From: an uncultured Dehalococcoidales bacterium
GTDB lineage: Bacteria > Chloroflexota > Dehalococcoidia > E44-bin15
Reading direction: 5' to 3'
DNA length: 27,023 nucleotides
Assembly: GCA_964648675.1 (NCBI GenBank)
Contig: CAZYLE010000004.1
Coordinates: 1 to 27,023, forward strand
Part shown: in pieces, positions 2,840-25,059 of the stretch
Layout: each line of letters begins with the position of its first letter
Numbering within the stretch: the stretch's first letter is position 1
Translations under genes and position numbers: made by a program
The notes under the pieces: model-generated
The model's input: the letters and a program-made list of their open reading frames with translations, nothing else
Told to the model about the DNA's origin: nothing
The model's database searches: none

Positions 2840-5014
2840 TCATACGGCGCTAATATGTGCACTGCTATACTGTGCTATTAGCTCGGCGCTATGCATTACT
2901 TTGATATTGCTTTTACGCTTATCAAGGCCACCCCTGAGTTGGAGCACGCAGGGGGTACAGTTGGTAACCACTATATCGGCACCACTAGCTTCTATACTAT
3001 CTAGCTTTCGTTTCAATACTGAGTTAGATAATTCCGGGTATCTAAGCACAATATCACCGCCAAAGCCACAACAGGCATCAGACCCAGCCATCTCTACCAC
3101 CTCAAAGCCTTCACGTTCAAGCAGTTGTCTTGGTTCATTATATACACCAAGCCCCCTCTTCAAATAGCAAGGGTCATGGTAAGTGACCTTCTTATTTAAT
3201 GGAGGTCTCTTCTCTACCGAAGGAGTTAGTTCAAGAACCAGTTGCGAGAAATCGCGAATTTTACTTGACAGCGCTTTCGCTCGCTGGTTCCACTCTGGCT
3301 CAGTAGTGGTCAGGCGTGGATACTCCTGTTGTAGCATAACTGCACAGCCAGGACACACCGTAACGATATAATCAGGATTCATTTCTTCCAAAGCAGCGAT
3401 GTTCCTTTTAGCTAAGCTTAGCGCTGTTTCAGCATCGCCAGCAAACCACGCTGGAGCACCACAGCACGTTTGTCCTTGCGGATAATAAGGCTCAGCACCA
3501 CATTCCCGCAGAACCTTCATCACATCTTCACCAAGGTCGGGGTAGGCATAATCAGCCACACAGCCGGCATAGAAAGCTGCCCTAGGACTAACTCCAGCCC
3601 TGGGCGATGATAAATCCTTCAACCTGTCACGTAATGGACTATTTGACAGCGCGGGAAGGCTGATAGTCCTGGCCAGCGAATCCAATGGATAAGGAAGGTG
3701 TCTTGTCATAGAGTCTTTATCGGTGAAAGGCCGTTGCAGATAGGAACCAGCTCTTATTGCGCTATCCAATCGCTCTGGGTGTTTCAGGATGCCTCGGTAT
3801 GCCATTTTGCCTCTCCATGACAAGCCCTCTTCTGCCACAAACCTAGCCTTTAACTGGGCTATCATTTGCGGTATATCGATACAAGCTGGGCAGACTTCCT
3901 TGCAGGCCATGCATCCCATGCATAGGCTAGCTGGATCCTTTGCCTTATCCATGCCATGTAGGAAGGCAGTCAAGACAGCGCCAATCCCACCCTGATAGAT
4001 GTACCCATATGTTTGTCCAGCGACTGATTGAAAAACCGGGCAAACGTTGAGACAGGCACCGCATTTGATGCAGTATAGTGCCTCTCTGAACTCAGAGGAT
4101 TCTCTCGTTTGCCAGCGGCCATTGTCGACTAGTACGATATGCACCTCGATAGGACCTTGTGCACCGAGCGTTGTTGTCCCTGGAATAGCACTAGTAGTGC
4201 TGGGACCGGTAATATAAGAGACATAGATTGGCATTTTCATACCCATTGTGCTTCTGCTCAGTAGTCTCAGTATGGAGTCAGCATCTTCTAAACTCGAAAC
4301 CAACTTCTCATAGCCAACCAGCGCCACATGTACAGGAGGCAAAGTAGTCGCCATACAACCATTCGCTTCATTAGTCACGATGACTACAGTGCCAGTTTCA
4401 GCTATGGCGATATTGGCTCCTGAAATACCCATGTCTGCATTAATATAGAACTGCCTTAATGCGCGACGTGCTGCATTCAATAAAGCCTGAGGGTCAGGTT
4501 CCAGATGCTCACCCGTTCCTTCGGAGATAAGCTCAGCGACCTGTTCAATCGTTTTATGTATGGCTGGCCCCACCATATGCGCCGGCCTTTCCCCAGCTAG
4601 TTGTACGATCCATTCTCCAATGTCGGTTTCCTTTACCTCAACGCCAGCGTTCTCAAGATACTCCCTTAGCTCGAGCTCCTCAGTGAGCATGGATTTTGAT
4701 TTGACTATGTGTTTCACATGGCGTTCCTCTGCTAGCTTGAGTACATAGTTGTTGGCATCCTCGGCATCCCTTGCCTCATACACCACAGCGCCAGCCTCAG
4801 CAGCTTCAGTCTTAAATTGCTCCACTAACTGAGGTAGGTTGGCAATCGATTTCTCCTTCACGCGATGAATTTCTTTGCTTAAAGCATCAAAATCAATGCC
4901 CTCCAGTGCCATTTGGCGCACTATATTTAGGAGAGGTATCAATCTACCAAGAGCACTCTGCAGATTTTCATCTGTCAGCGCTTCATGTACACGCTTCGCC
5001 ATTTCCCTGCTCAT
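2840..5014 (-). CDS. lutB: LutB/LldF-LutA/LldE-type fusion: LUD domain + 2x[4Fe-4S] + two CCG domains (lactate/2-hydroxyacid dehydrogenase)
   Basis: KSKSM.TEE, ETDIGEWIVQL, HMVGPAIH, GANIAIAETG, CIKCGACLNVCP and CMGCMACKEVCP, followed by two CCG repeats (TCCGAP...CPGC; YHDPC...CCGFGG...NCTPC). Confidence 0.88.
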   Translation of the reverse strand: MSREMAKRVHEALTDENLQSALGRLIPLLNIVRQMALEGIDFDALSKEIHRVKEKSIANLPQLVEQFKTEAAEAGAVVYEARDAEDANNYVLKLAEERHVKHIVKSKSMLTEELELREYLENAGVEVKETDIGEWIVQLAGERPAHMVGPAIHKTIEQVAELISEGTGEHLEPDPQALLNAARRALRQFYINADMGISGANIAIAETGTVVIVTNEANGCMATTLPPVHVALVGYEKLVSSLEDADSILRLLSRSTMGMKMPIYVSYITGPSTTSAIPGTTTLGAQGPIEVHIVLVDNGRWQTRESSEFREALYCIKCGACLNVCPVFQSVAGQTYGYIYQGGIGAVLTAFLHGMDKAKDPASLCMGCMACKEVCPACIDIPQMIAQLKARFVAEEGLSWRGKMAYRGILKHPERLDSAIRAGSYLQRPFTDKDSMTRHLPYPLDSLARTISLPALSNSPLRDRLKDLSSPRAGVSPRAAFYAGCVADYAYPDLGEDVMKVLRECGAEPYYPQGQTCCGAPAWFAGDAETALSLAKRNIAALEEMNPDYIVTVCPGCAVMLQQEYPRLTTTEPEWNQRAKALSSKIRDFSQLVLELTPSVEKRPPLNKKVTYHDPCYLKRGLGVYNEPRQLLEREGFEVVEMAGSDACCGFGGDIVLRYPELSNSVLKRKLDSIEASGADIVVTNCTPCVLQLRGGLDKRKSNIKVMHSAELIAQYSSAHISAV

Positions 5015-5068
5015 GTCTCCGCCTCACACTACACAGCTATAGCCCCTACCTGAACTTTATGCGCCCTA

Positions 5069-5812
5069 TCATTTACTTGCAGCCTTACTTACTAGTAAAA
5101 TATGCTCTTCATCGGGACCTTGAGCCCTAGCCATCAACGCCTTTGGTATATCAGCGGTAGTGTTTCTACCGGTGATATAAGTGACATAGCTCGGCATTTT
5201 CCTATCCATCATGGTTCTGCTAAGCAGTTTAAGCCTGACAGTGGCATCTTCCATAGTTGAGACTAACTCTTCGCAGCCAACCATGGTTACATGTATACGA
5301 GGCAAAACAGCGACCAAGCGCTCATTCCCTTCGTTGCCCACAATGATTAAAGTCCCGGTTTCAGCTATGGCAATGCTAGCTTCCGAAATGCCCATATCTG
5401 CACTCAGATATAACTTTTTCAACGCCCGACGTACGGCACCTAATACAGCCCGAGGGTCAGGTTCCAGTTGCTCACCAGTCCGTTCAGAGATAAGTTCAGC
5501 GACCTGCTCAATGGTTTCATATGGGGCAGAGCCTGCCATCTGCGCCGGTCTTCCCCCAGCTAGCTGGACGATCCATTCTCCGATGTCGGTTTCCTTTACT
5601 TCGATGCCACCATTTTCAAGGTGCGCCTTTAACCCCATTTTCTCCGCCAGCACTGATTTTGACTTGACTATAAGCTTCACACTACGTTCCTGTGCCAGTT
5701 TCAACACATAATCATTGGCATCCGCGGCATCTTTGGCTTCATAGACCAGGGCGCCAGCGTTAGCAGCCCCCGTTTTAAATTGCTCCACAAGTTCTGCAGC
5801 TCCCATAGCCAT
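5069..5812 (-). CDS. Stand-alone LUD-domain protein, paralog of the adjacent LutB N-terminus
   Basis: Collinear with the LutB LUD domain (43 of the first 60 aligned residues identical by hand count), with no Fe-S motifs. Start ATG 5812 follows GAGGGG. Confidence 0.85.
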   Translation of the reverse strand: MAMGAAELVEQFKTGAANAGALVYEAKDAADANDYVLKLAQERSVKLIVKSKSVLAEKMGLKAHLENGGIEVKETDIGEWIVQLAGGRPAQMAGSAPYETIEQVAELISERTGEQLEPDPRAVLGAVRRALKKLYLSADMGISEASIAIAETGTLIIVGNEGNERLVAVLPRIHVTMVGCEELVSTMEDATVRLKLLSRTMMDRKMPSYVTYITGRNTTADIPKALMARAQGPDEEHILLVSKAASK

Positions 5813-5871
5813 TTCCAAGACCCCCTCAACAAATTACAAAATAGTACGTACCACTTTATTCCTATAGGCCA

Positions 5872-6495
5872 TCACTGCTGCCGCTCGGCAAGCTCCATGC
5901 CCCTGCTGAAGGCCGTCATATTGGCCTCAAATTCCTTGAAGAAACTCTCTTGCAACACCGGCTCCAGCGACTCCTTGTCTAGCGGGAGGACACCAGAGCC
6001 AACAAGGGCGCCAATGAGGATTACATTGGCAAAGATAGGGTTTCCCATCCTTTGTGCTTCTTCGGTAGCATTTATTACCCATGTTTTAGCTGACAGCTCC
6101 TTGATGGTTTCCATGAGCTTATCCATGTTGGGATATTCAGCATCACCGCCGGTAACATCAATGGAATATATCGGCCTAGGATTCACTATAGTCATGACAT
6201 CGGGGTTACCAAACTGTCCCAGCATTCGCAAAGTTTCTACCGGCTCCATGCCGAGGATGACGTCAGCGCATCCGTCGGAGATAAATGGGCTACACTCAGT
6301 TTCCTTCGAAATTCTCATATGGCTCATGACGGCTCCACCCCGTTGGGACGCCCCATAGGTCTCCCCAATAGTCACATAGTAGCCTTGCCTTACCAGGGCA
6401 TTACCGATGAGCAGGGAGATTCTCACATTGCCTTGCCCACCAACGCCGGTAATTATTAGGTTAAGTGGCTCCTTCATTAGGGCTTTCGTCTTCAT
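5872..6495 (-). CDS. iorB: Indolepyruvate/aryl-2-oxoacid:ferredoxin oxidoreductase beta subunit
   Basis: GVGGQG, ETYGASQRGGAVMSHMRI, D..LGMEP.E and N..AF..G. ATGA overlap with iorA; RBS AGGAGG. Confidence 0.92.
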   Translation of the reverse strand: MKTKALMKEPLNLIITGVGGQGNVRISLLIGNALVRQGYYVTIGETYGASQRGGAVMSHMRISKETECSPFISDGCADVILGMEPVETLRMLGQFGNPDVMTIVNPRPIYSIDVTGGDAEYPNMDKLMETIKELSAKTWVINATEEAQRMGNPIFANVILIGALVGSGVLPLDKESLEPVLQESFFKEFEANMTAFSRGMELAERQQ

Positions 6496-8432
6496 GTTGC
6501 CTCCTTTACGATGGCTCCTCGTGGACATATATCTGCGCACACCCCACATCCGGTACATATGACCTCGTCTATCTTAGCCTTACCAATATCCGTATCCCAT
6601 ATCAATCCAGGGCAACGAAATACCCTGGTGCATAATCTGTCACAACCACAGGCCTCTCCAATACACACATCAGGATCAACATATACTTTATATGGGTTTT
6701 CCTTTTCCCTGTGGCTTCTTACCAGCTCGCACTCGCGTCGCATTATCACCACCTTAGCCCCGCCACCGTCCGCCATCATTTCCAGCAAGGTTGCAGTAGT
6801 ATCCTCAAGATCGAAGGGGTCGCAAATGACTACATGTGTCCCCAATGCGCCGCATAAAGCTTCCATGCTAACAACCTTTGTTACCTCCCCAGTAGCGGTC
6901 ACCCCGGTTCCAGGGTGAGGTTGGAAACCAGTCATGGCAGTAGCGCTGTTATCCAAGATAACAAGGATGAAATTCGCCTGATTGTACACCCCGTTTATCA
7001 GTGCCGGTATTGCGGCATGAAAGAACGTAGAGTCGCCGCATACAGCGAGCACCGGCTGGTTGAAACCGAACTGCCCCAATTTGCCAAGGCCGTTGGCCAC
7101 TCCCACCCCCGCTCCCATGCAATGCATCGTCCGCACCTGGAAAAAGCCCGCAGGTCCCAGTGCCATTGAGTAGCAGCCGATATCACCGGTAACAATTCCG
7201 TTGCGCCCATCCAGCTTAAGTGCATTCTTGATCGCCCAGAAGGTAGCACGATGAGCGCAACCAGGGCAAAAAGTCATCATCCGTTGGGGCACATATCTTC
7301 TTGAGGCTTCCTGTGCTTTCTTAGCATATTCAACGTCCCGCGGTTGATACGACAGCCCCATTATGCTTGTTATCGCTTTAATAACCATATCTGGGTTTAG
7401 CTCTCCATAAGCATTTATATCGCCAGAACGCTTGCCATAGAAGACCGGATGTGGGCCGTCAGGCGGCAGGTTGGCAACCAGTTCCATCACGCTTCGCTCC
7501 AGGAAGGGGTCGATCTCCTCAACCACAAGTACTTTATGCGATTTGCCCAGATGTCTTTCCACAAGTTTTTCTGGTAAGGGCCAAAGAGTGCCCAGTTTCA
7601 GGATGCCCACCTTGTCCTCCAGTTTCAATGCCTTCACCGCTTCCTGGGAGTACAGCCAGCAGCTACCACAGGTTATGATGAGCAAATCTGCTTTATCCGG
7701 ACCTATGTACCAATTGAAGGGTGATGATTCAAACTTTCCCCGCGCATTTTCCAACTTCACGTGCAGCAAAGCATGCCGCAATGCGCTCGGAACCGGCATA
7801 AACCTGGTCGGCATGACGTTCCGTGCATCGTGTACCTGATCGAAATATGCCTTCTGTTCCTTTTTAAGCAATTCACCCAGCTTTACATTGCCCCTAGCAT
7901 GGGCAATGCGAGTTACACTCCGCAGCATACAGATGGTGCCTAGCTCCTCCGAAAGCTCAAAGAGCCATTTTGTCATATCCTTGGCTTCCTGGAAGTTACC
8001 TGGCTCAAGTAACGGAATGTCTAACCATTTAGCTATGGGACGCGTGTCCTGTTCATTAGAACTGGAGATAGCGGAAGGATCATCGCAGCTAACAAGAACT
8101 AATCCCCCTTTACCTATACCAGTCATTACGAGATTTGCTAGAAAATCAGAAACGACATTTACCCCATTCTGCTTCATAGAGGCGATGGCTCGGATTCCAG
8201 CAAAGGAAGCGCCAGTAGCAGCCTCCATGGCCACTTTTTCATTTACCGACCACTGGGCGTAGATGCCCATCTTCTTGGCTACAGATGCCAGACTTTCCAT
8301 GATTTCTGACGAAGGCGTCCCGGGGTAGGCAGCAGCAAATCCTACCCCCGCTTCCAGTGCGCCACGGGCAATAGCTTCGTTACCAATAAAGAGCTGACTG
8401 GTACCAGGAGCATCTATGTCAATACTTGCCAT
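6492..8432 (-). CDS. iorA: Indolepyruvate/aryl-2-oxoacid:ferredoxin oxidoreductase alpha subunit
   Basis: GNEAIARG, YPGTPSSE, NEKVA.E, FCPGC.HR, GDIGC, TPP motif GDSTFFH...DN..TAMTG.QPHP and a C-terminal ferredoxin domain. Start ATG 8432 follows GGAGGTG. Confidence 0.93.
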   Translation of the reverse strand: MASIDIDAPGTSQLFIGNEAIARGALEAGVGFAAAYPGTPSSEIMESLASVAKKMGIYAQWSVNEKVAMEAATGASFAGIRAIASMKQNGVNVVSDFLANLVMTGIGKGGLVLVSCDDPSAISSSNEQDTRPIAKWLDIPLLEPGNFQEAKDMTKWLFELSEELGTICMLRSVTRIAHARGNVKLGELLKKEQKAYFDQVHDARNVMPTRFMPVPSALRHALLHVKLENARGKFESSPFNWYIGPDKADLLIITCGSCWLYSQEAVKALKLEDKVGILKLGTLWPLPEKLVERHLGKSHKVLVVEEIDPFLERSVMELVANLPPDGPHPVFYGKRSGDINAYGELNPDMVIKAITSIMGLSYQPRDVEYAKKAQEASRRYVPQRMMTFCPGCAHRATFWAIKNALKLDGRNGIVTGDIGCYSMALGPAGFFQVRTMHCMGAGVGVANGLGKLGQFGFNQPVLAVCGDSTFFHAAIPALINGVYNQANFILVILDNSATAMTGFQPHPGTGVTATGEVTKVVSMEALCGALGTHVVICDPFDLEDTTATLLEMMADGGGAKVVIMRRECELVRSHREKENPYKVYVDPDVCIGEACGCDRLCTRVFRCPGLIWDTDIGKAKIDEVICTGCGVCADICPRGAIVKEAT

Positions 8433-8463
8433 ATTATTCACCTCCCTAATCTGCTGTCCACCA

Positions 8464-9576
8464 TTAAGCCAGGAGCTTATCAACCATGCTCTTCGATAGC
8501 CCAATATAAAATAGGTCGCTTTTATCGCCACTCATTTTAACGATTTCCTCTACTGCCCTTTTCTTCTTTAGCAGCGCCGCCTCTTTCAGATGAGCTAGAT
8601 TCTGAGGTGGCAATCGGTCAACCTCAAGTTTACCCTTGGCCTTGGCCATCTCCACAAGCTCCGCACCAACATTGGTGCGGACAATGACAGTGTTCCAGCC
8701 TTCGATTCCCTCAACCGAGCCCACCGAGATATCAGCAAGCTCCGATGTCATGTCCAGGCAGTACCTGCATGTTGACATAATATATCTCCTGATCTGGTCC
8801 AATGGAAAAGAGACAATGCCGAACCGGGTATAGGCATCGAATCTATCTGCCGGAGGGGGCGGAATGTCGAACTTGATTACCTGCGGCAAGTCTAGGTTCT
8901 CCTCAAGGAAGTGATAAAATCCATCAGGAGATAAAGCCCAGGTACAAAACAGTCCAATCACCAGCTTTACATTACCAATACTTACTCTGTTCTGTTGTGG
9001 AGCTTTCTTCATCTTGGCCAGAGCCAGTGCCTGGCAGGGCATGACAACTACTCCCACCCTCTCTTCACTATCTGTAGGAATGCCGTTTAATGCCGCTAAT
9101 ACAGGGCAAGCCATGTAATTGGAGCCAGCGCATTGAAGCACCTCTTCCATATTACGAGCCAAGAAAGCCCTTGGTGTCTTATCACCGGATGTTTTTGACA
9201 TAACTGCTCCCTCAATGAGTCCCTCTGCCAGCGCCAGGGACAAGAGTGTGGTTACCGTTCCACCATATTGGGCCCTTTCCTTTATGCGTGCATCCTTTGA
9301 CCTTGCCATCAATACTTCCTTGGCAGTGCCTATTTCATCATCGCTATATGGTTTCCCAAAAACTAGCTGGCTGAGCGCGTCCATATCGGTGTATGTCCGT
9401 GGGCAATATTGATAACATTGGCCCTCTGCCAGAGTGCAATTGTCCAGAAGCACTATTCTGCCTTTGTAGGGGACCAGGTATGGACAACCACCAGCACACG
9501 CACCACATAGGGTGCATAATCCGGCATCGATTACTTCGTTGAACAGCTCCTTCGAGCCTTTTACTCTCGTATCCAT
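8464..9576 (-). CDS. FrhB/FdhB-family (F420-reducing beta subunit) flavoprotein with N-terminal ferredoxin domain, FpoF-like architecture
   Basis: N-terminal CTLCGACAGGCP and CYQYCP, then FrhB motifs GGTVTTLL, GSNY, PCQ, IGLFC and CRYC.D..SELADISVG. Confidence 0.88.
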   Translation of the reverse strand: MDTRVKGSKELFNEVIDAGLCTLCGACAGGCPYLVPYKGRIVLLDNCTLAEGQCYQYCPRTYTDMDALSQLVFGKPYSDDEIGTAKEVLMARSKDARIKERAQYGGTVTTLLSLALAEGLIEGAVMSKTSGDKTPRAFLARNMEEVLQCAGSNYMACPVLAALNGIPTDSEERVGVVVMPCQALALAKMKKAPQQNRVSIGNVKLVIGLFCTWALSPDGFYHFLEENLDLPQVIKFDIPPPPADRFDAYTRFGIVSFPLDQIRRYIMSTCRYCLDMTSELADISVGSVEGIEGWNTVIVRTNVGAELVEMAKAKGKLEVDRLPPQNLAHLKEAALLKKKRAVEEIVKMSGDKSDLFYIGLSKSMVDKLLA

Positions 9577-9621
9577 AACCTGCTCCTTTCGATTTCCACC
9601 CCGGCTGATGTATATTACAAT

Positions 9622-10866
9622 TCACGAAAAATACTGTATTGTACCATCGGGAACCACCGCTACCCGAGCACCCTGGGGGAAGTCCTGTGTCAAAATATCC
9701 ATAACCTCCGACCAGGTCTTCACCCAGAGGGTATCAGGTATGGCCAGCCAGTCGGCAAAAGACTTCTCAATCTGTGGTGACAATACTATCATTCTTTTAA
9801 GCCAAGGTAGCTGGAAATTGACCGGGCTAAACAAGCGCCCTCTTATTGATTTGCCAAAACTGCCCAGCAGGTAATGCACTACCTGACCAGCAGGACAATC
9901 CATAATCAATACAAGGTCGCCACCCTTCTCCGCCAATAACTGTACCCCCATGAGCAGACCAACGATTGCTTCATTAGCCTTGCTGTAGTTATTGACTACT
10001 GCCACATCGATCTCCGAGGCAGCTTTAGTAGTATAGTGCGGCACGACAGATTTCAAGGCCTCATTGAACTCAGCCTGAGTTTCCCCAGCGAATGCGGCAC
10101 AAGGCTCCCCCTTGCCATTAATCATGGTATCGATTTTAAAGTCCAGCCCCACCATTCTGGCTGCCTCATTAAAGTCCCGTATCATAGGATTCTCAGTGTA
10201 TTTACCAGGCCCTACAATGTCTCCGTGTCCAGAGTATCTAGCTTCGATTTCTAGGCGGTGAAAGCCCTCGATTGAGTCCATTGAAGCTATACCAGGCAGG
10301 ATAATCTTCCCACCGCCGCCATATCCACTTTGGACATGCGGGACTATGGACCCAATGGCGATCTTAAGGTTACAGCTCATCACCTCAGCATTAACAGATA
10401 GTTCGGTGCCTTGCGACGTCCGTCCAACATATTTGCAGTTCTCATATGCGTTGTGATTGTAAACTGGGAACCTATCCAGTATTTCCCCTCCCAATTTCTT
10501 CTGGAAGTCCTCAAAGGTATGCGCGCTGTGGGAGCCGGTAGCGCAGATAAATCTGATGGCCGCATCAGGAATGCCTGCTGCCTCTAGCTCCTCGAGAACA
10601 TAGGGCACTAGCTCGGCAGCACGTGTGGGTCGGGAAAGGTCATCAAAGATTATAACCACTTCGTTCTTCCCCTGTGCCAACTCCCTGAGTGGCGGTGTGC
10701 CAATAGGCTTGCTGAAGGCAGCCCTTATCTGTTCTGACATCATGTGAGGGGCATTGTGCCCATTCATACGGCAGGGCAAAACTTCCCACGACTCGGGAAA
10801 TTCTAGCTGCCAATCTCCCCGTTCATACCACATTTGTCTGGGAACTGTCATAGTCCTGATGCCCAT
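9622..10866 (-). CDS. LarA-superfamily (nickel-pincer-type) 2-hydroxyacid racemase/epimerase-like protein
   Basis: PIGTPPL, DDLSRPT, ATGSH, NH, IVPH..SGYGGG.K.ILPG and I...H match the LarA N-terminal domain. The C-terminal domain is divergent. Confidence 0.85.
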   Translation of the reverse strand: MGIRTMTVPRQMWYERGDWQLEFPESWEVLPCRMNGHNAPHMMSEQIRAAFSKPIGTPPLRELAQGKNEVVIIFDDLSRPTRAAELVPYVLEELEAAGIPDAAIRFICATGSHSAHTFEDFQKKLGGEILDRFPVYNHNAYENCKYVGRTSQGTELSVNAEVMSCNLKIAIGSIVPHVQSGYGGGGKIILPGIASMDSIEGFHRLEIEARYSGHGDIVGPGKYTENPMIRDFNEAARMVGLDFKIDTMINGKGEPCAAFAGETQAEFNEALKSVVPHYTTKAASEIDVAVVNNYSKANEAIVGLLMGVQLLAEKGGDLVLIMDCPAGQVVHYLLGSFGKSIRGRLFSPVNFQLPWLKRMIVLSPQIEKSFADWLAIPDTLWVKTWSEVMDILTQDFPQGARVAVVPDGTIQYFS

Positions 10867-10926
10867 CTTATTTCTCCCTTTCTACGTCGGAAGAGCGTTA
10901 CCCTTATTAGCAATATATACGAAATC

Positions 10927-11715
10927 TTATTTTTTTAAGTTTGAGACCCTAGCTGTTATGGCTGCGCCTAAGGCTGTCACTATATGGGGATGTGGAGGTA
11001 CAAGTAGCCGAATATTCAACTCATGTTCTACAGCCTCGACGAGCCCGTTATTAAGGGCACCACCGCCACAGATAGCACACGGCTCTACCAACCTGACCTT
11101 CTTAGACAGTGAGAATATCTTGTCGGCTAAGGCTTTGTTGACCCCAGCGGCGATATCCTCTTTAGGGATGCCCTCAGCAACCCTGGTAATAGCCTCTGAT
11201 TCGCCAAAAACAGCGCATCCCGTGCTGAAAGTGACGGGATTTTTAGACTGAAGAGAAAGAGGGCCAAAGTCCTCCAAATCTATTCGCAACACGTTGGCAA
11301 TAAGCTCGACAAATTGGCCGCTTCCGGCGGCGCACTTTTCACTAATGGTGAAGTTGGCCACCAGCCCCTCCCCATCTATGCGTATTAATTTAACGGACTG
11401 CCCTGCCACATCGATAACTGTCCTCGCTGAGGGGAAGATGCTATTTATACCTCTGGCAGTGCAAACTATATCACTAACTCTCTGACTGGCGAAGTAGACG
11501 CTGCCAGCACCGGTGCCGGTGGCTACGGTAGCGGTAATATGATCCAGAGCTAGGTTAACCTCTGTCAGCAGCTCCTCTCTTATCCTCTCGGCTGTCGTGC
11601 GGTAATTGGCGCCGGAAAGTATCACGCAGTAAGCAGAAAGCTCGTTATCTCTAGTTATAACTCCCTTGCTATACGCCGAGCCGATGTCGATACCGATAAA
11701 CCAAGACATTTGCAT
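10927..11715 (-). CDS. BadF/BcrD-type ATPase activase, degenerate delta-like subunit
   Basis: GIDIGS...K, DVAGQSVK, EKCAAGSGQF, GCAVFGESE, GGGALN and ALGAA. Confidence 0.88.
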   Translation of the reverse strand: MQMSWFIGIDIGSAYSKGVITRDNELSAYCVILSGANYRTTAERIREELLTEVNLALDHITATVATGTGAGSVYFASQRVSDIVCTARGINSIFPSARTVIDVAGQSVKLIRIDGEGLVANFTISEKCAAGSGQFVELIANVLRIDLEDFGPLSLQSKNPVTFSTGCAVFGESEAITRVAEGIPKEDIAAGVNKALADKIFSLSKKVRLVEPCAICGGGALNNGLVEAVEHELNIRLLVPPHPHIVTALGAAITARVSNLKK

Positions 11716-11722
11716 TGCTTCC

Positions 11723-12565
11723 TCACTTGAAGAAGGTGGCCTTTTCTAAACGGCGCTGCTTTGCCGGTGCAGGCTCACCCCTGGCTATTGCCGCCAATGA
11801 GAGTTCCCTTGCCAGTATAGCAGCGCCAAGTGCGCCGGTTATAAGTGGGTCTTCAGGAACAAGAAGTTCGCAGCCCAGATAATCATTCATCGCTCTAATG
11901 ATGCCACGGTTTTTTGCCACCCCTCCAGTAAGCACCACATCAGGTTCTATTTTCAGCCTCCGTGCTAATCCGGCTACTCTGCTCGCCACAGCATCGCTAA
12001 GGCCGGCTAGGATATCTTCCAACTTTTCTCCCTCAGACAAGCGAGCTACTACCTCTTGCCGGGCGAAGATAGTGCATAAGTTGCTAATCTGGACTTTCTT
12101 GGTAGACCTTAAGGAAATATCTCCCATATCCTCTAGCTTAATATTCAGCGCCGCAGCGATGACTTCCAGGAACCTGCCTGTGCCAGCGGCACATTTATCG
12201 TTCATAACGAAGTCGACCAACTTGCCCTTATCGATCTTCATACACTTAGCATCCTGTCCGCCGATATCAATAGCTGTCCTGACACTGGGAAACAAACTGA
12301 ATACCCCCCTGGCATGACAAGTCAGTTCGGTAATCTGACGGTCGGCGAAAGGAACATTGAAACGGCCATAGCCTGTGGCTACAACGTATGAAATCTCATC
12401 AAGCTGCAAATTGGCTTGCCCCAACGCCATTTGCATAACCTCATCGGCTAACTGGCGATGTTCAGGACCAGTGGGGCCTTTGACGACTGACAGAATGTTA
12501 TCATCCACATCCATAAGCAGAATCTTAGTCATAGTGGAACCTATGTCGACCCCAGCAAAATACAA
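11723..12565 (-). CDS. BadG/BcrA/HgdC-type ATPase activase, canonical subunit
   Basis: GVDIGSTMTK, TGYGR, TELTCHARG, DIGGQDAK, MNDKCAAGTGRFLE, CTIFA..E and GGVAKN. Start is TTG 12565 or GTG 12571. Confidence 0.92.
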   Translation of the reverse strand: MYFAGVDIGSTMTKILLMDVDDNILSVVKGPTGPEHRQLADEVMQMALGQANLQLDEISYVVATGYGRFNVPFADRQITELTCHARGVFSLFPSVRTAIDIGGQDAKCMKIDKGKLVDFVMNDKCAAGTGRFLEVIAAALNIKLEDMGDISLRSTKKVQISNLCTIFARQEVVARLSEGEKLEDILAGLSDAVASRVAGLARRLKIEPDVVLTGGVAKNRGIIRAMNDYLGCELLVPEDPLITGALGAAILARELSLAAIARGEPAPAKQRRLEKATFFK

Positions 12566-12587
12566 GTGCACCTCTCAAACTGTATTT

Positions 12588-13754
12588 TTAGCTAATAGTT
12601 TCCAGGAAGGCTTCAACCCTTGTTCTTAACGGTGCCAGGGCTCCTTGCGCATAGTCGTATTCTATGTAGGTGCTGGGAATACCAATGCTGTCGAAGTAGT
12701 CTTTGAGTGAAGGAATTTCAAAAGCGAATGGGTCACAATAGCGGACGAGCAAGAATATTGCTCCATTGACTTTCCATTCTCGAGCGAAGTCTTTCAGATA
12801 ACCAAATCGGTTTCCCAAATCTTCCAGATAGTCTTTCTTAGTCTCACCAAGAACAGTCTCTCTGAATGTGCGAGCGCAGGTTATCTCCTCCAAATAGTAC
12901 TGAGCCAGTCCATCCAATGGATCATCGGTTAGCTTTACCTCAGCCCTGAAGGGTCTAATGCCCCCACAGCTCTCGTCTAACACCACATTTGCCCCGTTCT
13001 CGAATATCTGCATTATCTCGGTATCATCCAGCGTGCTGCTCCAGAGGATAAGCCGCACTGGTTTCCTTTCAGGCCCATCGGTACGGTCTTTGACCTCGCC
13101 AATAACTTGGGCTAGTAACTCATTGCCTTCGTCCACAGGCAGACTCATCAACGCCTTTACTACCTGGAGGATCTCCGTTCCCGAGATAAGAGGCGTCTCG
13201 GGCTTCGTTTGTTCGTACAGTTCTCTTACCAAGGCTCGCTGTTGATTATGAGATTGGATGGCTGCCTTGAGTCTGTCTGAGGAAAGCTCCTTTTTAGTGA
13301 AAGCCTCCAGTGTCTTCTTCAAATCGTTTAATTGCCCTTTGAAGTACTCCATAGCCTCCGGTCGAACCGTGCCAGGTATATCCATGAAATGGAAATAGGG
13401 ATAGCTTATATAAGATTCCCACAGACGAGCCGTTTTTTCTTGAGGGTCACAAGAATGAGCTACAATTATCCCGTCCAGGAAATCATCTCTGGCTTTGAGT
13501 GCGCAATCAAAGCAGCTACGAATGATAGGGCAAAACGAGGTAGGCAACGCTCTATCTGCCTCGGTGACCGGCTCCTTGATATCTCCGTATGTTCGGTACG
13601 GGATCACACCAAGCGCAGTAAGCATCTCTACAGGCACATAGACGCAGGGATAACCTATGACCTTCTTGCCTTCCGCCTTAAGCTCTTTGACTCTGCGGGA
13701 CCGGTTTCGGTAAATCTCCTTGGCTTTACTAAGCCCTTTGCTTTTATCTGCCAT
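12588..13754 (-). CDS. 2-hydroxyacyl-CoA dehydratase / class I benzoyl-CoA reductase subunit (HgdB/BcrC/BzdN-like)
   Basis: HGD-D family pattern: GYPCVYVPVEM..A.G..P, FCP, HSCD, RYCDP and TRVEAFLE. Confidence 0.88.
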   Translation of the reverse strand: MADKSKGLSKAKEIYRNRSRRVKELKAEGKKVIGYPCVYVPVEMLTALGVIPYRTYGDIKEPVTEADRALPTSFCPIIRSCFDCALKARDDFLDGIIVAHSCDPQEKTARLWESYISYPYFHFMDIPGTVRPEAMEYFKGQLNDLKKTLEAFTKKELSSDRLKAAIQSHNQQRALVRELYEQTKPETPLISGTEILQVVKALMSLPVDEGNELLAQVIGEVKDRTDGPERKPVRLILWSSTLDDTEIMQIFENGANVVLDESCGGIRPFRAEVKLTDDPLDGLAQYYLEEITCARTFRETVLGETKKDYLEDLGNRFGYLKDFAREWKVNGAIFLLVRYCDPFAFEIPSLKDYFDSIGIPSTYIEYDYAQGALAPLRTRVEAFLETIS

Positions 13755-13790
13755 TTTCTACAACTCACCAAGCTGAAATTTGCTGTTTTC

Positions 13791-15134
13791 CTACCAATCG
13801 AAACCCTCTTGCTTCCTTACTCTTCGGTAATACTCCATTGTCTCCTCGAATGGTTCCGCCCTGGCTATGGCATCTTCGGGGTCAAACAACCGAAGGTCTA
13901 CGATATCTCCTTCAATTGTTAGTGAAGGCACCTTTAGCCTTTCCATTATCAAGTTTGCCACATACGGCAAATGTGTGGAGGCGCTGCGGCAACTGATGAG
14001 GGGGTGGAGGAGCGCCCCATCGCATTTCCATTCTCTTACATACTTCAAGTATGGATATGCCAAGGCGCCGGCGGGCACATTTTGTTCCAACGCGTCTTCA
14101 TAATAGCCAATAAAAACCTGGAGACTGAATCTGGTGATTTTCTCCAGAGGGTTGCTAACCTCACTCAGGTCAAGAGGAATAGGCGGTCGGTAGCCAAAAC
14201 TCTCGACGACGAAGTTCCATCCCCTCTCGGCCAATCTATCGAAGAATCCCAAGCTATGCCACGGCGGAAGCTCGGCGAATACCAGTCGATATCTCTCCTC
14301 GTCAATGGCTCCTACATGGTTTTTCACCCTATCCCTCACCTCTTCATACATATCCCGATAGCATTGCAACGAATGCTTCAGATCGCCCATCAGAAACAGC
14401 GCTGCAGGCATTGCACTCCAGAAATCTCTGCTATGCATGGGGCAGGGTTTTGCCTTGCGCAGTTCGCTTATTTCATGCCACAGCCGGTTAACCTCTATCA
14501 TAAGGTCTACTGTCTCATCCAATTTATCCCAGTCCATTTTCCTGCCAGTGATACGTTCGACGAAGTTAATAAACTCACCGAGATGCTGAACTCCTAAATG
14601 AACCATCCGTTCATATGAGCCTTCCATGAACAGTTCCTTCACTCCAGGCATTGGCGCTTCCAATGTCCATACCGGAACATCCATATAGCGGCCTAATGAC
14701 TGGAACCACTTATACCTAGCATCACAAACAGCAGCCGAAGACATCAGGAATATGGGTTTCGGCATGCCTCCTAGAGGCGCCTCCGCAGGTATTTCGCCTT
14801 TCAGTTCTCTCATCATCTTCGAGGTATAGCCAAGAGTAGCCCGGCTATAACCACACAGGTGGGTAGGAAACCCGTCAGCATCGGCATATTCCAGGTAAGG
14901 TTGGGCAAATCCCGTAGCGGCAAGGGCAGCACCGTAATTCTCTGGATATACTACTTCCAAATCCATGGCTTTGAGTATAGGGTCACCATAATACCAGTTA
15001 AGCATAGCCCACACTGTGGGTTTGCCCGCTCTCATAGCTTCAACGCTCTTTAGGTACGTCTCATTTACCTTGGCTCGAAGCGGGTACATTGATTTCAGCC
15101 GGTTTATCGCCTTCTTCTTTTCCTCGACAGCCAT
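13791..15134 (-). CDS. 2-hydroxyacyl-CoA dehydratase / class I benzoyl-CoA reductase subunit (HgdA/BcrB/BzdO-like)
   Basis: YPENY.A, LCGY, GG.PKP, VCD...KW, SCR and EGD.VD.R. Three putative cluster cysteines. Confidence 0.88.
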   Translation of the reverse strand: MAVEEKKKAINRLKSMYPLRAKVNETYLKSVEAMRAGKPTVWAMLNWYYGDPILKAMDLEVVYPENYGAALAATGFAQPYLEYADADGFPTHLCGYSRATLGYTSKMMRELKGEIPAEAPLGGMPKPIFLMSSAAVCDARYKWFQSLGRYMDVPVWTLEAPMPGVKELFMEGSYERMVHLGVQHLGEFINFVERITGRKMDWDKLDETVDLMIEVNRLWHEISELRKAKPCPMHSRDFWSAMPAALFLMGDLKHSLQCYRDMYEEVRDRVKNHVGAIDEERYRLVFAELPPWHSLGFFDRLAERGWNFVVESFGYRPPIPLDLSEVSNPLEKITRFSLQVFIGYYEDALEQNVPAGALAYPYLKYVREWKCDGALLHPLISCRSASTHLPYVANLIMERLKVPSLTIEGDIVDLRLFDPEDAIARAEPFEETMEYYRRVRKQEGFDW

Positions 15135-18014: not shown

Positions 18015-18384
18015 TTCCCTCTTTTCAAAGTCTATTGCCTTCGAGTATGAATTATTCCCTCTTGCTGTCAAGCTACATCACATCTAGTATTACTTGCTAT
18101 TATATATAGATGTCAATAGCCTTCGCCTGAATGATTTGTATTTCATAAAGCGTGAAGACCCTATAAGCATTGTCAACTGAGCATCCTTTCTTTGACGAAC
18201 AACATCGGTAGGCACTACATTGAAAAGGGAAGGCCAAGATGGAGACACCAGAGGCAAGGAACAGCTATAATAGTAGCGCCCTAGAATAAAGCATATAATC
18301 CTTAAGATACATCTGACCCCTATTTTCGTTATATTACACAGCATAAGCAGGCAAATATCGAGACACTTTTTCGTTTGAGATATT

Positions 18385-18699
18385 ATGAATTCCAGGCTTA
18401 GAGTAGGAATCGATGTCGGCGGTACATTCACCGATTTGGTAGCCTTTGATGAAGAGAGTGGTGAGTCCTTTCTCATTAAATGGCCGTCAACCCCCCGCGA
18501 CCCCAGCGAAGGAGTGATCCACGCATTCAAATATCTTAGGGAAAGAAGCGAACGAGCGATCTCCGTATTCGTTCACGCATCAATTGTTGGAAGCAACATC
18601 TTTTTAGGTCAGTTGGGTTTGAACATTTCCAAGGGAGCCCTGGTCACGACTAGTGGATTCAGAGACTTGTTGCAAATCGGCCGTCAAAGGAGAGCCTAA
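18385..18699 (+). pseudogene. Truncated hydantoinase A / 5-oxoprolinase family N-terminal fragment
   Basis: GIDVGGTFTD, K.PSTP.DPS.GV and L.TTSGFRD.L.IGRQ.R. TAA after 104 aa; family-like VYNPF continues just past the stop, then similarity ends. Confidence 0.85.
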
Positions 18700-18822
18700 G
18701 TATACAATCCTTTTTTGAATAGGGAATCACAGAACATATTTAATAGCGACATCATCTGGAGGAAAACAACTTTACATAATCTAGCGACTGCCAAATCGCC
18801 GAGCTGCTGGGTGTGAAAACAT

Positions 18823-18947
18823 CCTCCCACCCCTTGAGGGAGGGAGGTCCCTCCGCTGATCATCACCCCAGCTCTCTCCTCGCCAGTCTCCGGAGGCGAC
18901 TCGCCTTGGTGAGAGTCGAGTCTTCGACCTTCAAGGGAGAGGGGTGA
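18823..18947. repeat. Nested palindromic elements (CCCTC/GAGGG-type hairpins)
   Basis: CCTCCC...GGGAGG at 18823-18847. TCACCCC (18863) pairs with GGGGTGA (18947) and TCTCC with GGAGA, enclosing smaller hairpins. Confidence 0.55.
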
Positions 18948-18966
18948 AATTCGGTTTGATCCCCTT

Positions 18967-18997
18967 GGTGGGTTTCGCTGTGCTCCACCCACTCTAC
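18967..18997 (-). repeat. GTAG-type REP, 31-nt family
   Basis: The minus strand reads GTAGAGTGGGTGGAGCACAGCGAAACCCACC, matching the 19108 copy in length and flanks. Confidence 0.6.
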
Positions 18998-19030
18998 GCG
19001 TTCCGTGACACCTCAAGGCTGCTCAAAGAG

Positions 19031-19080
19031 GTAGTTGCCCAATTTATTGGGCAGTCGAGCCTGATAAATCAGGCAACTAC
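19031..19080. repeat. GTAG-type REP inverted doublet (REPIN-like)
   Basis: GTAGT-TGCCCAA-TTTA-TTGGGCA, then an inverted GTAGT-TGCCTGA-TTTA-TCAGGC with compensatory stem changes. Confidence 0.75.
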
Positions 19081-19107
19081 ACAAATTGAGGATGGTGTTA
19101 AATATAA

Positions 19108-19202
19108 GTAGGGCGGGTGAAATGAAATGGAACCCACCTTCCCAAAATAGATATGGCAATGGTGGGTTTCGACCTTCAGCTGAAAGGCTGCACCCACTAT
19201 AC
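19108..19202. repeat. GTAG-type REP inverted doublet, GGGTG...AACCCACC family
   Basis: GTAGGGCGGGTGAAATGAAATGGAACCCACC (19108-19138), and an inverted GTATAGTGGGTG...GAAACCCACC (19161-19202) with an internal hairpin. Confidence 0.6.
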
Positions 19203-19330
19203 TACTTTGTTTTTTATTTACCCGATATTCTTTCACTTTTCCTCTTCCTTATCCATAACGCCCATAGATAACTACAAGAGCTATGGTAAGGTAGAACCAA
19301 GAAAGTGCCCGGCCTAGCAGAATTTTCTCA

Positions 19331-20536
19331 CTATCCCTCTCGCTCAATTATAGTTGCGGCGCCTTGCCCTCCCCCAACACACGCATTTGCCAGGCCAAAC
19401 CTCCCATTCTCCCACTCCAATATACGAGCTAGTGTTCCAACCAATCTCGTCCCTGATGCCCCCAAGGGATGTCCAATCGCTACTGCGCCACCTTTAACAT
19501 TGACTTTGTCGGGGTCTATGCCCAGTTCTTTTATGCAATTGATTGTTACGATGGAGAATGCCTCGTTGATTTCCCATAGATCGATGTCCTTCACCTCCAT
19601 ACCCGCATGGCGCAAAGCCATTCTGCTTGCCGGAACTGGCCCCATCCCCATAACTGTTGGATCCACGCCAGCCCACCCCATCGATACGATTTTAGCCAGA
19701 GGCTTGAGGTTATACTCCTTCGCCTTCTTTTTCGACATCATAAGTATTGCCGTCGCACCAGCATTTAGCGGAGAGGAGTTTCCAGCGGTTATCTGTCCAT
19801 CTGGTTTGAATGCCGGCTGCAGATCGGCAAGGGCCTCCATTGACGTATCCCCTCTAATGCTCATGTCGTGATCGATAACCCTTTTTGTGCCATCCGCCTG
19901 GTCTGCTGCGATGGGCAGTATTTCCCCTTTGAAGTATCCCTCTTCAAGCGCTTTTGCCGCCAACTGATGGCTTCTGAGCGACCACTTATCCATATCCTCT
20001 CTGGTGAAGTCCGTTTGTTCGAACAGCTTTTCCGCTGTAAGCCCCATGTTGGCAGCTATCAATAAATCGTACTTCTTATACGTTTCTGACAACAATTTAG
20101 GGTTCGGTTCCACCGGCACCTGGCCTGGCTCACGACCACCACCCAGCGCTGGAATGTGGGTCATATGTTCGATTCCACACGAAATAACGATGTCAGAATA
20201 TCCCAGCATTATCTCCATAGCGCCCTGATGTATGGTGGACATCGAAGATGCACACTGCCGATCGGTCTGTTGCGCTGGAACATTGAACGGCAATCCCGCC
20301 AGAAATGTGATAAGCCTTCCACCATATAGCCACTGCTCGCGCAGGGGCATTGCCGTTCCCGTCAACACATCGTTGATTTCCTCTGGCTTTATCCCCGTTC
20401 TCTTTAGAAGTTCCTTAATCAACATCGCAGCAACTTCATCCATTCTCAAGCTGTTAAACACATCCCTCTCCGGCTCCCTTGGCCTTGACCTTGAAAAGGC
20501 AGACCTCAAATAATCAACAATTACCGCTTCTTCCAT
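19331..20536 (-). CDS. Thiolase (acetyl-CoA C-acyltransferase)
   Basis: RQCASS (catalytic Cys), TAGNSSPLNAGA, EINEAF, GHPLGASG and ACVGGGQG. Start ATG 20536 follows AGGAG. Confidence 0.95.
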   Translation of the reverse strand: MEEAVIVDYLRSAFSRSRPREPERDVFNSLRMDEVAAMLIKELLKRTGIKPEEINDVLTGTAMPLREQWLYGGRLITFLAGLPFNVPAQQTDRQCASSMSTIHQGAMEIMLGYSDIVISCGIEHMTHIPALGGGREPGQVPVEPNPKLLSETYKKYDLLIAANMGLTAEKLFEQTDFTREDMDKWSLRSHQLAAKALEEGYFKGEILPIAADQADGTKRVIDHDMSIRGDTSMEALADLQPAFKPDGQITAGNSSPLNAGATAILMMSKKKAKEYNLKPLAKIVSMGWAGVDPTVMGMGPVPASRMALRHAGMEVKDIDLWEINEAFSIVTINCIKELGIDPDKVNVKGGAVAIGHPLGASGTRLVGTLARILEWENGRFGLANACVGGGQGAATIIEREG

Positions 20537-20583
20537 TCGAATATCTCCTTTCATAATCCTGGCTTTTTAAACCAGCCACCTCA

Positions 20584-20869: not shown

Positions 20870-21130
20870 ATGGATATTACTATAACAAAAGGACGCCCGA
20901 TCATAGTCGATGCAGCAAGATGCACCGGGTGCCTCATCTGTGAGCTGCGCTGCTCGCTGAGGTTCGAGAAGGCCTTCAACCCATCGAAGGCTCAAATAAG
21001 GATCCGCCGCCTTGCTGGCGCCGATAACGAGTACGAGATCTCCTTCAGCGACAGGTGTGACAATTGCGGCATTTGTGTCCGGTACTGCCCTTATGGTGCT
21101 TTGATCCAGGAGAAGAGAGGGGGAGCCTGA
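20870..21130 (+). CDS. 2x[4Fe-4S] ferredoxin-like subunit partnered with the AOR
   Basis: CTGCLICELRC and CDNCGICVRYCPYGA; GAGGT RBS; 1 nt gap to the AOR gene. Confidence 0.88.
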   Translation: MDITITKGRPIIVDAARCTGCLICELRCSLRFEKAFNPSKAQIRIRRLAGADNEYEISFSDRCDNCGICVRYCPYGALIQEKRGGA

Positions 21131-21131
21131 G

Positions 21132-23051: not shown

Positions 23052-23059
23052 TAGCGCCG

Positions 23060-24961: not shown

Positions 24962-25059
24962 CGTTCTCCTCCTTGCCCATGCCTTATCGCTCCCAGTCTA
25001 TCATAGGCTGTCTCTGGCTTCAAATATGCCAATGCTAGAAAACATTAGATGACGTCGTA

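Follow-up and report, generated by a model that had tools for sequence, protein, structure and literature searches.

The window analysed here is a stretch of 27,023 nucleotides from an uncultured Dehalococcoidales bacterium (contig CAZYLE010000004.1 of GenBank assembly GCA_964648675.1, positions 1 to 27,023), and we are concerned with a run of ten consecutive open reading frames (ORFs) in it, all on the minus strand, that together span positions 2840-15134. We have named the genes g1 to g10 in order of transcription and treat them as three modules: M1 (g1-g4), which resembles benzoyl-CoA reductase (BCR); M2 (g5, g9 and g10), a racemase and a dehydrogenase for 2-hydroxyacids; and M3 (g6-g8), an FrhB-like protein with a 2-oxoacid oxidoreductase of the IorAB type (IOR). 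Families were assigned by Pfam and NCBIfam profile scores, and where a bit score is followed by a second figure this is the NCBIfam equivalog cut-off. The family calls made for all ten genes in a preliminary description of this DNA were upheld by these profiles.

M1 starts with g1 (13791..15134), a catalytic alpha-type HGD-D subunit related to HadB and BzdO (Pfam HGD-D, 157 bits), and g2 (12588..13754), a beta-type HGD-D subunit related to BzdN and DCCP (HGD-D, 270 bits). These are followed by two BcrAD/BadFG electron-activating ATPases, g3 (11723..12571; BcrAD_BadFG 218 bits, TIGR00241 273 bits) and g4 (10927..11715; 151 and 212 bits). The first gene of M2, g5 (9622..10866), is for a LarA-like nickel-pincer-nucleotide 2-hydroxyacid racemase (Lar_N, 192 bits). 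M3 comes next, with g6 (8464..9576) for an FrhB/FpoF-like flavo-iron-sulfur protein (FrhB_FdhB_N, FrhB_FdhB_C and Fer4), g7 (6492..8432) for the alpha subunit of an IorA-type 2-oxoacid oxidoreductase (POR_N, PFOR_II, TPP_enzyme_C and Fer4) and g8 (5872..6495) for an IorB-type subunit (POR, 108 bits), the ATG of which overlaps the g7 stop codon. The array ends with the rest of M2: g9 (5069..5818), a small LUD-domain subunit in the LldG/LutC position (LUD_dom, 144 bits), and g10 (2840..5014), an LdhH-type fusion of LutB and LutA, that is an L-lactate or L-2-hydroxyacid dehydrogenase (LUD_dom, Fer4_8 and two CCG domains).

The gaps from g1 to g10 are 36, 16, 7, 60, 45, 31, -4, 53 and 54 nt, the negative value being an ATGA overlap of g7 and g8 at 6492-6495, and the co-orientation, the overlap and the upper limit of 60 nt given in the preliminary description thus all stand, the positive gaps being 7-60 nt. 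Start codons were chosen to agree with the family models (for g7 the ATG at 8432, in preference to a GTG at 8531, and for g8 the ATG at 6495), and all ten starts are preceded by a GGAG-like ribosome-binding site. A terminator scan gave no minus-strand terminator-like site in any of the nine junctions, and a weak one 3' of g10 (2833-2818); in the promoter scan promoter-like sites were no more frequent than in shuffled sequence. With junctions lacking terminators and promoter-like sites near the shuffled level, these scans neither divide nor prove an operon. An Rfam scan of the whole window gave no riboswitch or other RNA at gathering score and so no nickel or cobalamin regulatory lead. The same array is present on the independent contigs L001, L002, L006 and L077 at 92-96% identity, and is therefore not an assembly artefact. 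The closest loci are in metagenome-assembled genomes (MAGs) of uncultured Dehalococcoidales, with g2 identities of 95% and 92%, and for g2, g5 and g6 those homologues that have a name come from MAGs of Chloroflexota or Dehalococcoidia. The ten genes are a real, operon-like array.

The preliminary description proposed for this array a self-contained loop, in which M1 would use ATP to dearomatise a benzoyl-CoA analogue formed from a mandelate-type acid by way of an arylglyoxylate, with the IOR giving both the thioester and the reduced ferredoxin. Such a scheme is favoured by the co-orientation of ten genes at gaps of 60 nt or less, and it requires no CoA ligase or CoA-transferase. Indeed the ten genes have neither an AMP-binding CoA ligase nor a CoA-transferase domain, as had been stated, and nor have the other scanned ORFs, with CoA_trans and CoA_transf_3 both absent from every scanned ORF of the 27-kb window. 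Also absent among the scanned ORFs of the window, however, are dienoyl-CoA hydratase, dehydrogenase and ring hydrolase. For this and for the reasons that follow we now regard the loop as very improbable.

The first of these reasons comes from comparison with relatives. We scanned two sets of loci, one-genome-per-species contigs anchored on g2 and metagenome contigs anchored on g6, and searched all window proteins against the retrieved loci by tblastn. The species-level scan gave 63 loci with M1, at 60-96% identity. They come from Dehalococcoidia in nearly all cases, and three belong to MAGs that bear the label Desulfobacterales or Desulfobacteraceae. We counted an M1 locus as informative if the contig ran on for 3 kb or more past the last ATPase gene. 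Of the 38 species-level genomes of this kind, 37 have none of g5-g10 in the locus (within about 10 kb). The sole exception is L006; L005 is a contig that ends early, with LarA as the next gene. A recurrent fifth gene next to M1 was sought in the 63 genomes and none was found, the commonest neighbours by synteny being purF, purM and purH.

Among the contigs anchored on g6, LdhH is in the locus in 16 of 47, LarA directly upstream in 3 of 59 and g2 in 1 of 35, and at least eight contigs have FrhB-IorAB-LUD-LdhH as a colinear run. In L068-L070 the g5 homologues, at 71-76% identity, are part of a LarA-LUD-LdhH unit of three genes that has no FrhB/Ior and no M1 with it, and the complete Chloroflexota genome CP070642.1 carries FrhB-IorAB at 1.55 Mb and LarA-LUD-LdhH at 0.21 Mb. 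In L073 the order is Fer4-LarA-FrhB-IorAB and then a gene for an ELFV-type amino-acid dehydrogenase, and in L074 LUD-LdhH is divergent from FrhB. The chain of racemase, Lut-type dehydrogenase and IOR put forward in the preliminary description is supported by these co-occurrences of LarA-LUD-LdhH, FrhB-IorAB-LUD-LdhH and LarA-FrhB-IorAB in other Chloroflexota. Thus LarA, LUD-LdhH and FrhB-IorAB combine with one another in shifting arrangements, and M1 is normally a free-standing four-gene operon.

The full ten-gene array is limited to one clade, consisting of close relatives of the window and one diverged contig, L103, in which the order of the ten genes is unchanged (64-86% identity) and YhhN and B12-radical-SAM genes again lie upstream. 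A neighbour-joining tree built from the concatenated g1 and g2 sequences makes L103 sister to the group of the window, L005, L006 and L077, and these five fusion-bearing loci form one clade with a sister clade in which the modules are unlinked, which makes a single fusion event the simplest reading. In L005, L006 and L077 g3 has been lost and the upstream genes differ, with the adjacency of M1, M2 and M3 kept. The combination is thus conserved elsewhere only in part, within the one clade and not outside it. As the preliminary description had made conservation elsewhere a test of its own proposal, the dearomatisation loop is largely refuted, although the retention of the array in the diverged L103 is a point in its favour. 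Since M1, M2 and M3 separate once relatives are compared, the array looks like a mosaic, and in our judgement it is probably a clade-specific end-to-end fusion of three modules, each conserved alone. Tight co-orientation in one genome is no proof of a pathway.

With regard to M1, g1 and g2 were placed by profile scores and by alignment to solved structures, with residues mapped onto the BzdNO structure. For g1 the NCBIfam scores are 130 bits (750) for HadB, 103 (449) for BzdO and 34 for the double-cubane model NF040772, and the Protein Data Bank (PDB) matches are 3O3M_A (HadB) at 108 bits and 8S02_A (BzdO) at 93 bits. For g2 the best model is double_cubane (NF040772) at 203 bits (350), with BzdN at 152 (454) and HadC at 142 (700), and the PDB matches are 8S02_B (BzdN) at 153 bits, HadC at 122 and DCCP at 85. 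Scores of M1 proteins for the other models are BzdQ 176 (380), BcrB 53 (487), BcrC 136 (421), BcrA 173 (578) and BcrD 112 (313). The two HGD-D proteins are about 21% identical to each other and the two ATPases 39.5%. The scores for BCR equivalogs are thus at most about a third of the cut-offs, and about half for BzdQ, which argues against M1 being a benzoyl-CoA reductase and hence against the loop.

The scores also bear on a second proposal in the preliminary description, that M1 codes for a 2-hydroxyacyl-CoA dehydratase and its activator (Fld/Had/Hgd; FldBC-type dehydration) in a reductive branch for aryl-lactate or other 2-hydroxyacids. In its favour the best matches of g1 are to HadB, both in NCBIfam and in PDB, and LarA and a 2-hydroxyacid dehydrogenase are adjacent in the array. 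However HadB and HadC are both matched far below cut-off, M1 is normally unlinked to 2-hydroxyacid genes, and the CoA-transferase that would be expected is lacking from the scanned ORFs of the window, although there is a family III CoA-transferase near FrhB-IorAB in L072 and L133.

In BzdN six Cys residues (36, 73, 100, 263, 293 and 327) ligate the double-cubane [8Fe-9S] cluster, and in BzdO three Cys hold the catalytic [4Fe-4S]-OH2 cluster, Glu65 and His131 form the acid-base pair and Trp46 and Tyr97 line the ring pocket (PMC11971306). All six double-cubane Cys of BzdN have counterparts in g2 (C37, C75, C102, C263, C293 and C340), and five of these are invariant in 59 homologues. The sixth, C102 (window 13449-13451, equivalent to BzdN Cys100), varies, with Cys in 34 of the 59 and Ser in the other 25. 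In the phmmer alignment HadC has no Cys at two of the positions, with Pro at C37 and Ala at C263. With the 2-hydroxyacyl-CoA dehydratase and BCR cluster types taken from PMC11971306, g2 departs from the dehydratase pattern, in which the beta subunit has a reduced [4Fe-5S]-type site and no additional double-cubane Cys. The beta subunit is thus like BzdN and DCCP and not like HadC, and dehydration of the FldBC type is improbable.

In the case of g1 the predicted cluster site is C94, C137 and C382, which align to the three [4Fe-4S] Cys of BzdO, and g1 keeps E65, Y96 and an aromatic residue, W47, at the positions of BzdO Glu65, Tyr97 and Trp46. These ligands, with those of g2, and the aromatic residue at the Trp46 position could be taken to favour dearomatisation. 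The YPEN motif around Glu65 is common to both HadB and g1, and would suit a dehydratase also. However BzdO His131 is replaced by R140 and Glu381 by R383, each an invariant Arg, and Ser44 by Leu, and the acid-base pair of BCR is thus incomplete in g1, which keeps the Glu and lacks the His. This counts against the loop, and the absence of His131 is shared with HadB. In 51 homologues E65, C94, Y96, C137, D138, R140, C382 and R383 are invariant or nearly so, and position 47 is always aromatic, with Trp in the window and Phe in 42 of the 51.

Both ATPase genes are present in 48 of the 52 informative loci, and g3 is missing from L005, L006 and L077. In L006 (6484-7420), and likewise in L005 and L077, which represent the sister lineage nearest to the window, a single g4-like ATPase gene (83-86% identity) lies between g2 and LarA. 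The two-ATPase layout of BCR is therefore not fixed among close relatives, and a single ATPase, as in a homodimeric activator, could be seen as favouring a dehydratase, although the presence of the ATPase genes inside the operon, and of two of them in nearly all loci, argues the other way.

By the tests applied M1 falls outside Bzd/Bcr, Had/Hgd and DCCP, with a conserved and more basic active site of its own, and is a distinct orthologous group, highly conserved and widespread in uncultured Dehalococcoidia. As the cofactor ligands are kept, M1 would be expected to work in the manner of a BCR-type reductase, ATP-driven and passing electrons from cluster to cluster. In some other genomes the genes beside M1 give a hint that its substrate is an acyl-CoA. 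M1 is also present at 77-83% identity in L007, L008 and L010, the MAGs labelled Desulfobacteraceae or Desulfobacterales, which nest among Dehalococcoidia in the tree of g1 and g2, and this suggests lateral transfer or mis-binning.

This has consequences for annotation. Marine-sediment Dehalococcoidia are often credited with anaerobic degradation of aromatics through 'bcr' genes (PMC10116835, PMC5736913). In databases, M1 genes of Dehalococcoidia are commonly given as subunits of benzoyl-CoA reductase, and several g2 homologues are named 'benzoyl-CoA reductase subunit C' in the source records. As the M1 family has BCR-type clusters but lacks a key catalytic residue and falls under every BCR cut-off, bcr annotations in Dehalococcoidia may overstate aromatic catabolism where the published 'bcr' genes are of this family.

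The racemase g5 has as its best NCBIfam matches LarAH6 at 211 bits (500), LarAH10 at 191 (540), LarA at 184 (460) and another equivalog at 159 (462), and by these scores it belongs to none of the characterised LarAH groups, for lactate, malate or hydrophobic 2-hydroxyacids. The PDB match is 6D6Z at 138 bits, and an exact look-up of the g5 protein gave no hit. H113, H177, K187 and H203 fall on motifs that are conserved in 2YJG and 6D6Z, and these four together with D76 and R79 are invariant in 120 homologues. The four are the counterparts of His108, His174, Lys184 and His200 of LarA from L. plantarum, which are the two catalytic His, the cofactor-tethering Lys and the nickel-binding His. No larBCE genes are in the window. 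The word "mandelate" is absent from the main text of a survey of the LarA superfamily (PMC11770544), which adds to the case against the loop.

The dehydrogenase g10 clears the LdhH equivalog NF045670 at 857 bits (800), with a layout of LUD, two [4Fe-4S] and two CCG domains. Its partner g9 shares 65.5% identity with the g10 LUD domain (residues 62-296; 4127-4831) and looks like a duplicate of a LutB-type domain rather than a classical LutC. Homologues of g9 adjoin those of LdhH in L068-L070, L074 and others. A gene for a SAF-domain protein and one for a GD_AH protein, resembling altronate and galactarate dehydratases, form a pair beside LdhH or the FrhB-like gene in L068 (14371-15872) and L074 (11164-12618), which hints at sugar acids or other hydroxyacids as substrates of M2 and M3 modules.

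In M3, g7 scores 588 bits (651) for IOR_alpha (TIGR03336) and g8 158 (238) for NF005323 and 151 (206) for TIGR03334. The architecture is that of IorA (POR_N, PFOR_II, TPP_C and two [4Fe-4S]) with its IorB partner, the scores being just under the equivalog cut-offs. The identity of g7 and g8 as phenylglyoxylate oxidoreductase was considered and is rejected, with 29 bits (700) for PadG and 37 bits for PadE, a phenylglyoxylate dehydrogenase subunit, and the step from arylglyoxylate to thioester in the loop is correspondingly undermined.

The third protein of M3, g6, has an N-terminal ferredoxin domain with two [4Fe-4S] clusters followed by an F420-reductase-type domain, and misses the equivalog cut-offs for FpoF (119 against 475) and FrhB (161 against 331). 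The best PDB match is 8RIU_B, the zeta subunit of ACDS, at 191 bits over residues 10-353, and both proteins have 370 aa. In Ca. Ethanoperedens thermophilum ACDS zeta couples a normally ferredoxin-dependent enzyme to the reduction of F420 (PMC11493965), and F420 is synthesised by some Chloroflexi (PMC8498797). An FrhB-like gene is directly ahead of IorA and IorB, at constant spacing, in 51 of the 52 informative metagenome contigs (loci L072-L155). Given this constant adjacency to IorAB and the zeta-like architecture, g6 is by analogy probably the third IOR subunit, through which electrons would leave for F420 or a different two-electron carrier. With such a constant FrhB-type partner the electrons of the IOR may not leave as ferredoxin, the form in which the dearomatisation loop needs them. 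We found no paper describing an FrhB-IOR enzyme or an IOR with an FrhB-type subunit. FrhB-IorAB neighbours elsewhere include a Kor/Vor-type OFOR, RidA, a GlcD-like FAD oxidase and an ELFV amino-acid dehydrogenase, which indicates catabolism of 2-oxo, 2-hydroxy or amino acids.

From the gene content, ligand conservation and co-occurrence observed we infer the following scheme, in its substrates, its electron acceptor and any coupling of M1 to M2 and M3. For g5-g10 the most likely route would be from D/L-2-hydroxyacid to the L-form, to the 2-oxoacid and to acyl-CoA and CO2. The nickel-pincer racemase g5 would feed both enantiomers of a 2-hydroxyacid to the LldG/LdhH-type dehydrogenase (g9-g10), this would turn the 2-hydroxyacid into the 2-oxoacid, and the IorAB-type oxidoreductase would convert that to acyl-CoA with release of CO2. 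The electrons would be handed by FrhB-like g6 to F420 or another two-electron carrier and not to free ferredoxin. IOR-type enzymes favour aromatic 2-oxoacids, and aryl-lactates are thus plausible substrates of g5-g10. In M1 the two BcrAD-type ATPases would inject electrons into the double-cubane [8Fe-9S] cluster of BzdN-like g2, from which they would pass to the [4Fe-4S] active site in g1, the HadB/BzdO-like subunit.

A bolder proposal would make the FrhB-like protein a fixed third subunit by which a Chloroflexota IorAB, of a kind that normally reduces ferredoxin, would reduce F420 or another hydride carrier, and where LUD-LdhH is fused, as in the window, the flavin may carry out electron confurcation. 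Separately, M1 would be a new substrate class of double-cubane ATP-driven reductases. In confurcation low-potential electrons from decarboxylation of the 2-oxoacid and high-potential ones from oxidation of the 2-hydroxyacid would join at the flavin, the thermodynamics being presumed. Confurcation, if present, would explain the recurrent linkage of FrhB-IorAB with LUD-LdhH, but as a whole we think the proposal rather unlikely.

Several points weigh against our interpretation of the array as a fusion of separate modules with the functions given above. The loci are mostly MAG contigs, and binning and assembly limit what can be said of whole genomes. The substrate of LarA, LdhH and the IOR could be lactate, aryl-lactate or another 2-hydroxyacid. 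The use of F420 by g6 is drawn by analogy, and some FrhB-family proteins do not use F420. Lastly the array persists in the diverged L103 and, despite new flanks and the loss of g3, in L006 and L077, which is mild evidence that adjacency is maintained; there may be selection for co-expression of M1 with M2 and M3, and hence functional coupling in this clade.

Such coupling need not involve dearomatisation, as M1 could act on the acyl-CoA or on a 2-oxoacid or 2-hydroxyacid, or could share a redox pool with M2 and M3. The retention of the fusion across the window clade and L103 (64-86% identity), and through flank changes and loss of g3, would fit with this, as would the gap of only 60 nt, with no terminator-like site, between g4 and g5. 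R140 and R383, both invariant and close to the cluster, might serve to bind a carboxylate. L133 (3235-14986) has a single g1-like HGD-D gene (52% identity) without g2, g3 or g4 in its neighbourhood, 2.5 kb upstream of LUD-LdhH-FrhB-IorAB, with a Pyr_redox_2 gene between and the family III CoA-transferase just downstream, and this may be a second, independent HGD-D association. However the fusion has a single origin and its retention may be mere inheritance, M1 is apart in 37 of the 38 other species, and the neighbours of M1 include housekeeping genes. We therefore see clade-specific coupling as a possibility on the unlikely side, and prefer the fusion of three independent modules.

The flanking regions have some features of their own. 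Between radical-SAM and thiolase genes there is 1.26 kb (18072-19330) with no convincing gene, in which a 104-aa ORF (18385-18699) resembles, by eye, the N-terminus of the hydantoinase/oxoprolinase family. At this place L001 and L002 have DUF169, a fragment of Hydant_A_N and further genes, so that the stretch in the window looks like gene decay or deletion. The window thiolase (acetyl-CoA C-acetyltransferase, 19331-20554) has counterparts at 78-79% identity in L081, L083, L087 and L089, four contigs with FrhB-IorAB-LUD-LdhH, about 3 kb downstream of the LdhH end, which is the opposite side of the array from that in the window. GC content is 0.54-0.61 at 21000-25000 and 0.46-0.50 in most of the window, with two other 1-kb bins at 0.53 and 0.55. 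The GC-rich stretch covers a convergent pair, a gene of the aldehyde:ferredoxin-oxidoreductase family (21132-23051) and one for an Fe-S flavoenzyme of the FadH/OYE type (23060-24961), and may have been acquired separately. A naphthoyl-CoA-type context was considered for the OYE-like gene and rejected, as the best BaiCD, bilirubin-reductase and FadH/OYE models are far below their cut-offs and the gene is 8 kb away with a different GC content.

It remains to set the array beside known systems. A literature search gave no paper describing the ten-gene combination, in agreement with the preliminary description, and what is new in the array is the arrangement, its enzymes being of known kinds, with the BCR-like family of Arg-rich active site and the FrhB-IorAB triad as the uncharacterised variants.

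For M1 the closest comparison is the class I BCR of the Bzd type (BzdNOPQ; 8S02; PMC11971306), which also has two HGD-D subunits and two BcrAD-type ATPases encoded together, the same six [8Fe-9S] Cys positions in BzdN and three [4Fe-4S] Cys in BzdO, the Glu65, the Tyr and an aromatic residue at position Trp46. It differs in having His131, Glu381 and Ser44 where M1 has Arg, Arg and Leu, and M1 is below its cut-offs, can dispense with one ATPase gene in close relatives and has no benzoyl-CoA pathway genes nearby. HadBC/HadI (3O3M) is like M1 in the alpha/beta HGD-D heterodimer, the three-Cys [4Fe-4S] site, the YPEN Glu motif and the lack of His at BzdO position 131. It is unlike M1 in that HadC has no equivalents of C37 and C263 and the activator is separate and homodimeric, in contrast to two ATPases in the operon, and M1 has no CoA-transferase. 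DCCP and DCCP-R (6ENO, 7YYL) share the six-Cys [8Fe-9S] pattern and an ATP-dependent reductase partner of the same ATPase family. However DCCP is a homodimer of one protein and the core of M1 is two paralogues, about 21% identical, with g2 at 203 bits (350) for the model.

In the case of M2 and M3 the comparison is with the lactate operon of Desulfovibrio, in which an LldG/LdhH L-lactate dehydrogenase goes with a pyruvate:ferredoxin oxidoreductase (POR), and the array follows the same logic. Both have LdhH (g10 at 857 against 800 bits) with a small LUD partner, beside an oxidoreductase of the 2-oxoacid:ferredoxin type. The differences are that IorAB and an FrhB-like subunit stand here in place of POR, that a LarA-type racemase is found where Desulfovibrio has a D-lactate dehydrogenase of its own, that pta, ack and permease genes are absent here, and that g9 is a recent paralogue of the LUD domain of g10 itself. 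With the LarA superfamily (PMC7583248, PMC11770544) g5 shares Lar_N, the two catalytic His, the tethering Lys and the nickel-binding His, and it differs in being below every LarAH cut-off and in a C-terminal third that does not align to solved structures.

For g6 the comparison is with ACDS zeta and FwdI of Ca. Ethanoperedens thermophilum (8RIU, 8RJA; PMC11493965), which have the same three-part architecture of ferredoxin domain, FrhB-type FAD/[4Fe-4S] domain and C-terminal tail, and are likewise encoded beside an enzyme that normally reduces ferredoxin. Their partners are CODH or Fwd in an archaeon, whereas that of g6 is of the IOR type in a bacterium, with the complex and the use of F420 putative. 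The FrhB-IorAB triad is thus a candidate bacterial counterpart of the F420-coupled CODH and Fwd enzymes of ethane-oxidising archaea.

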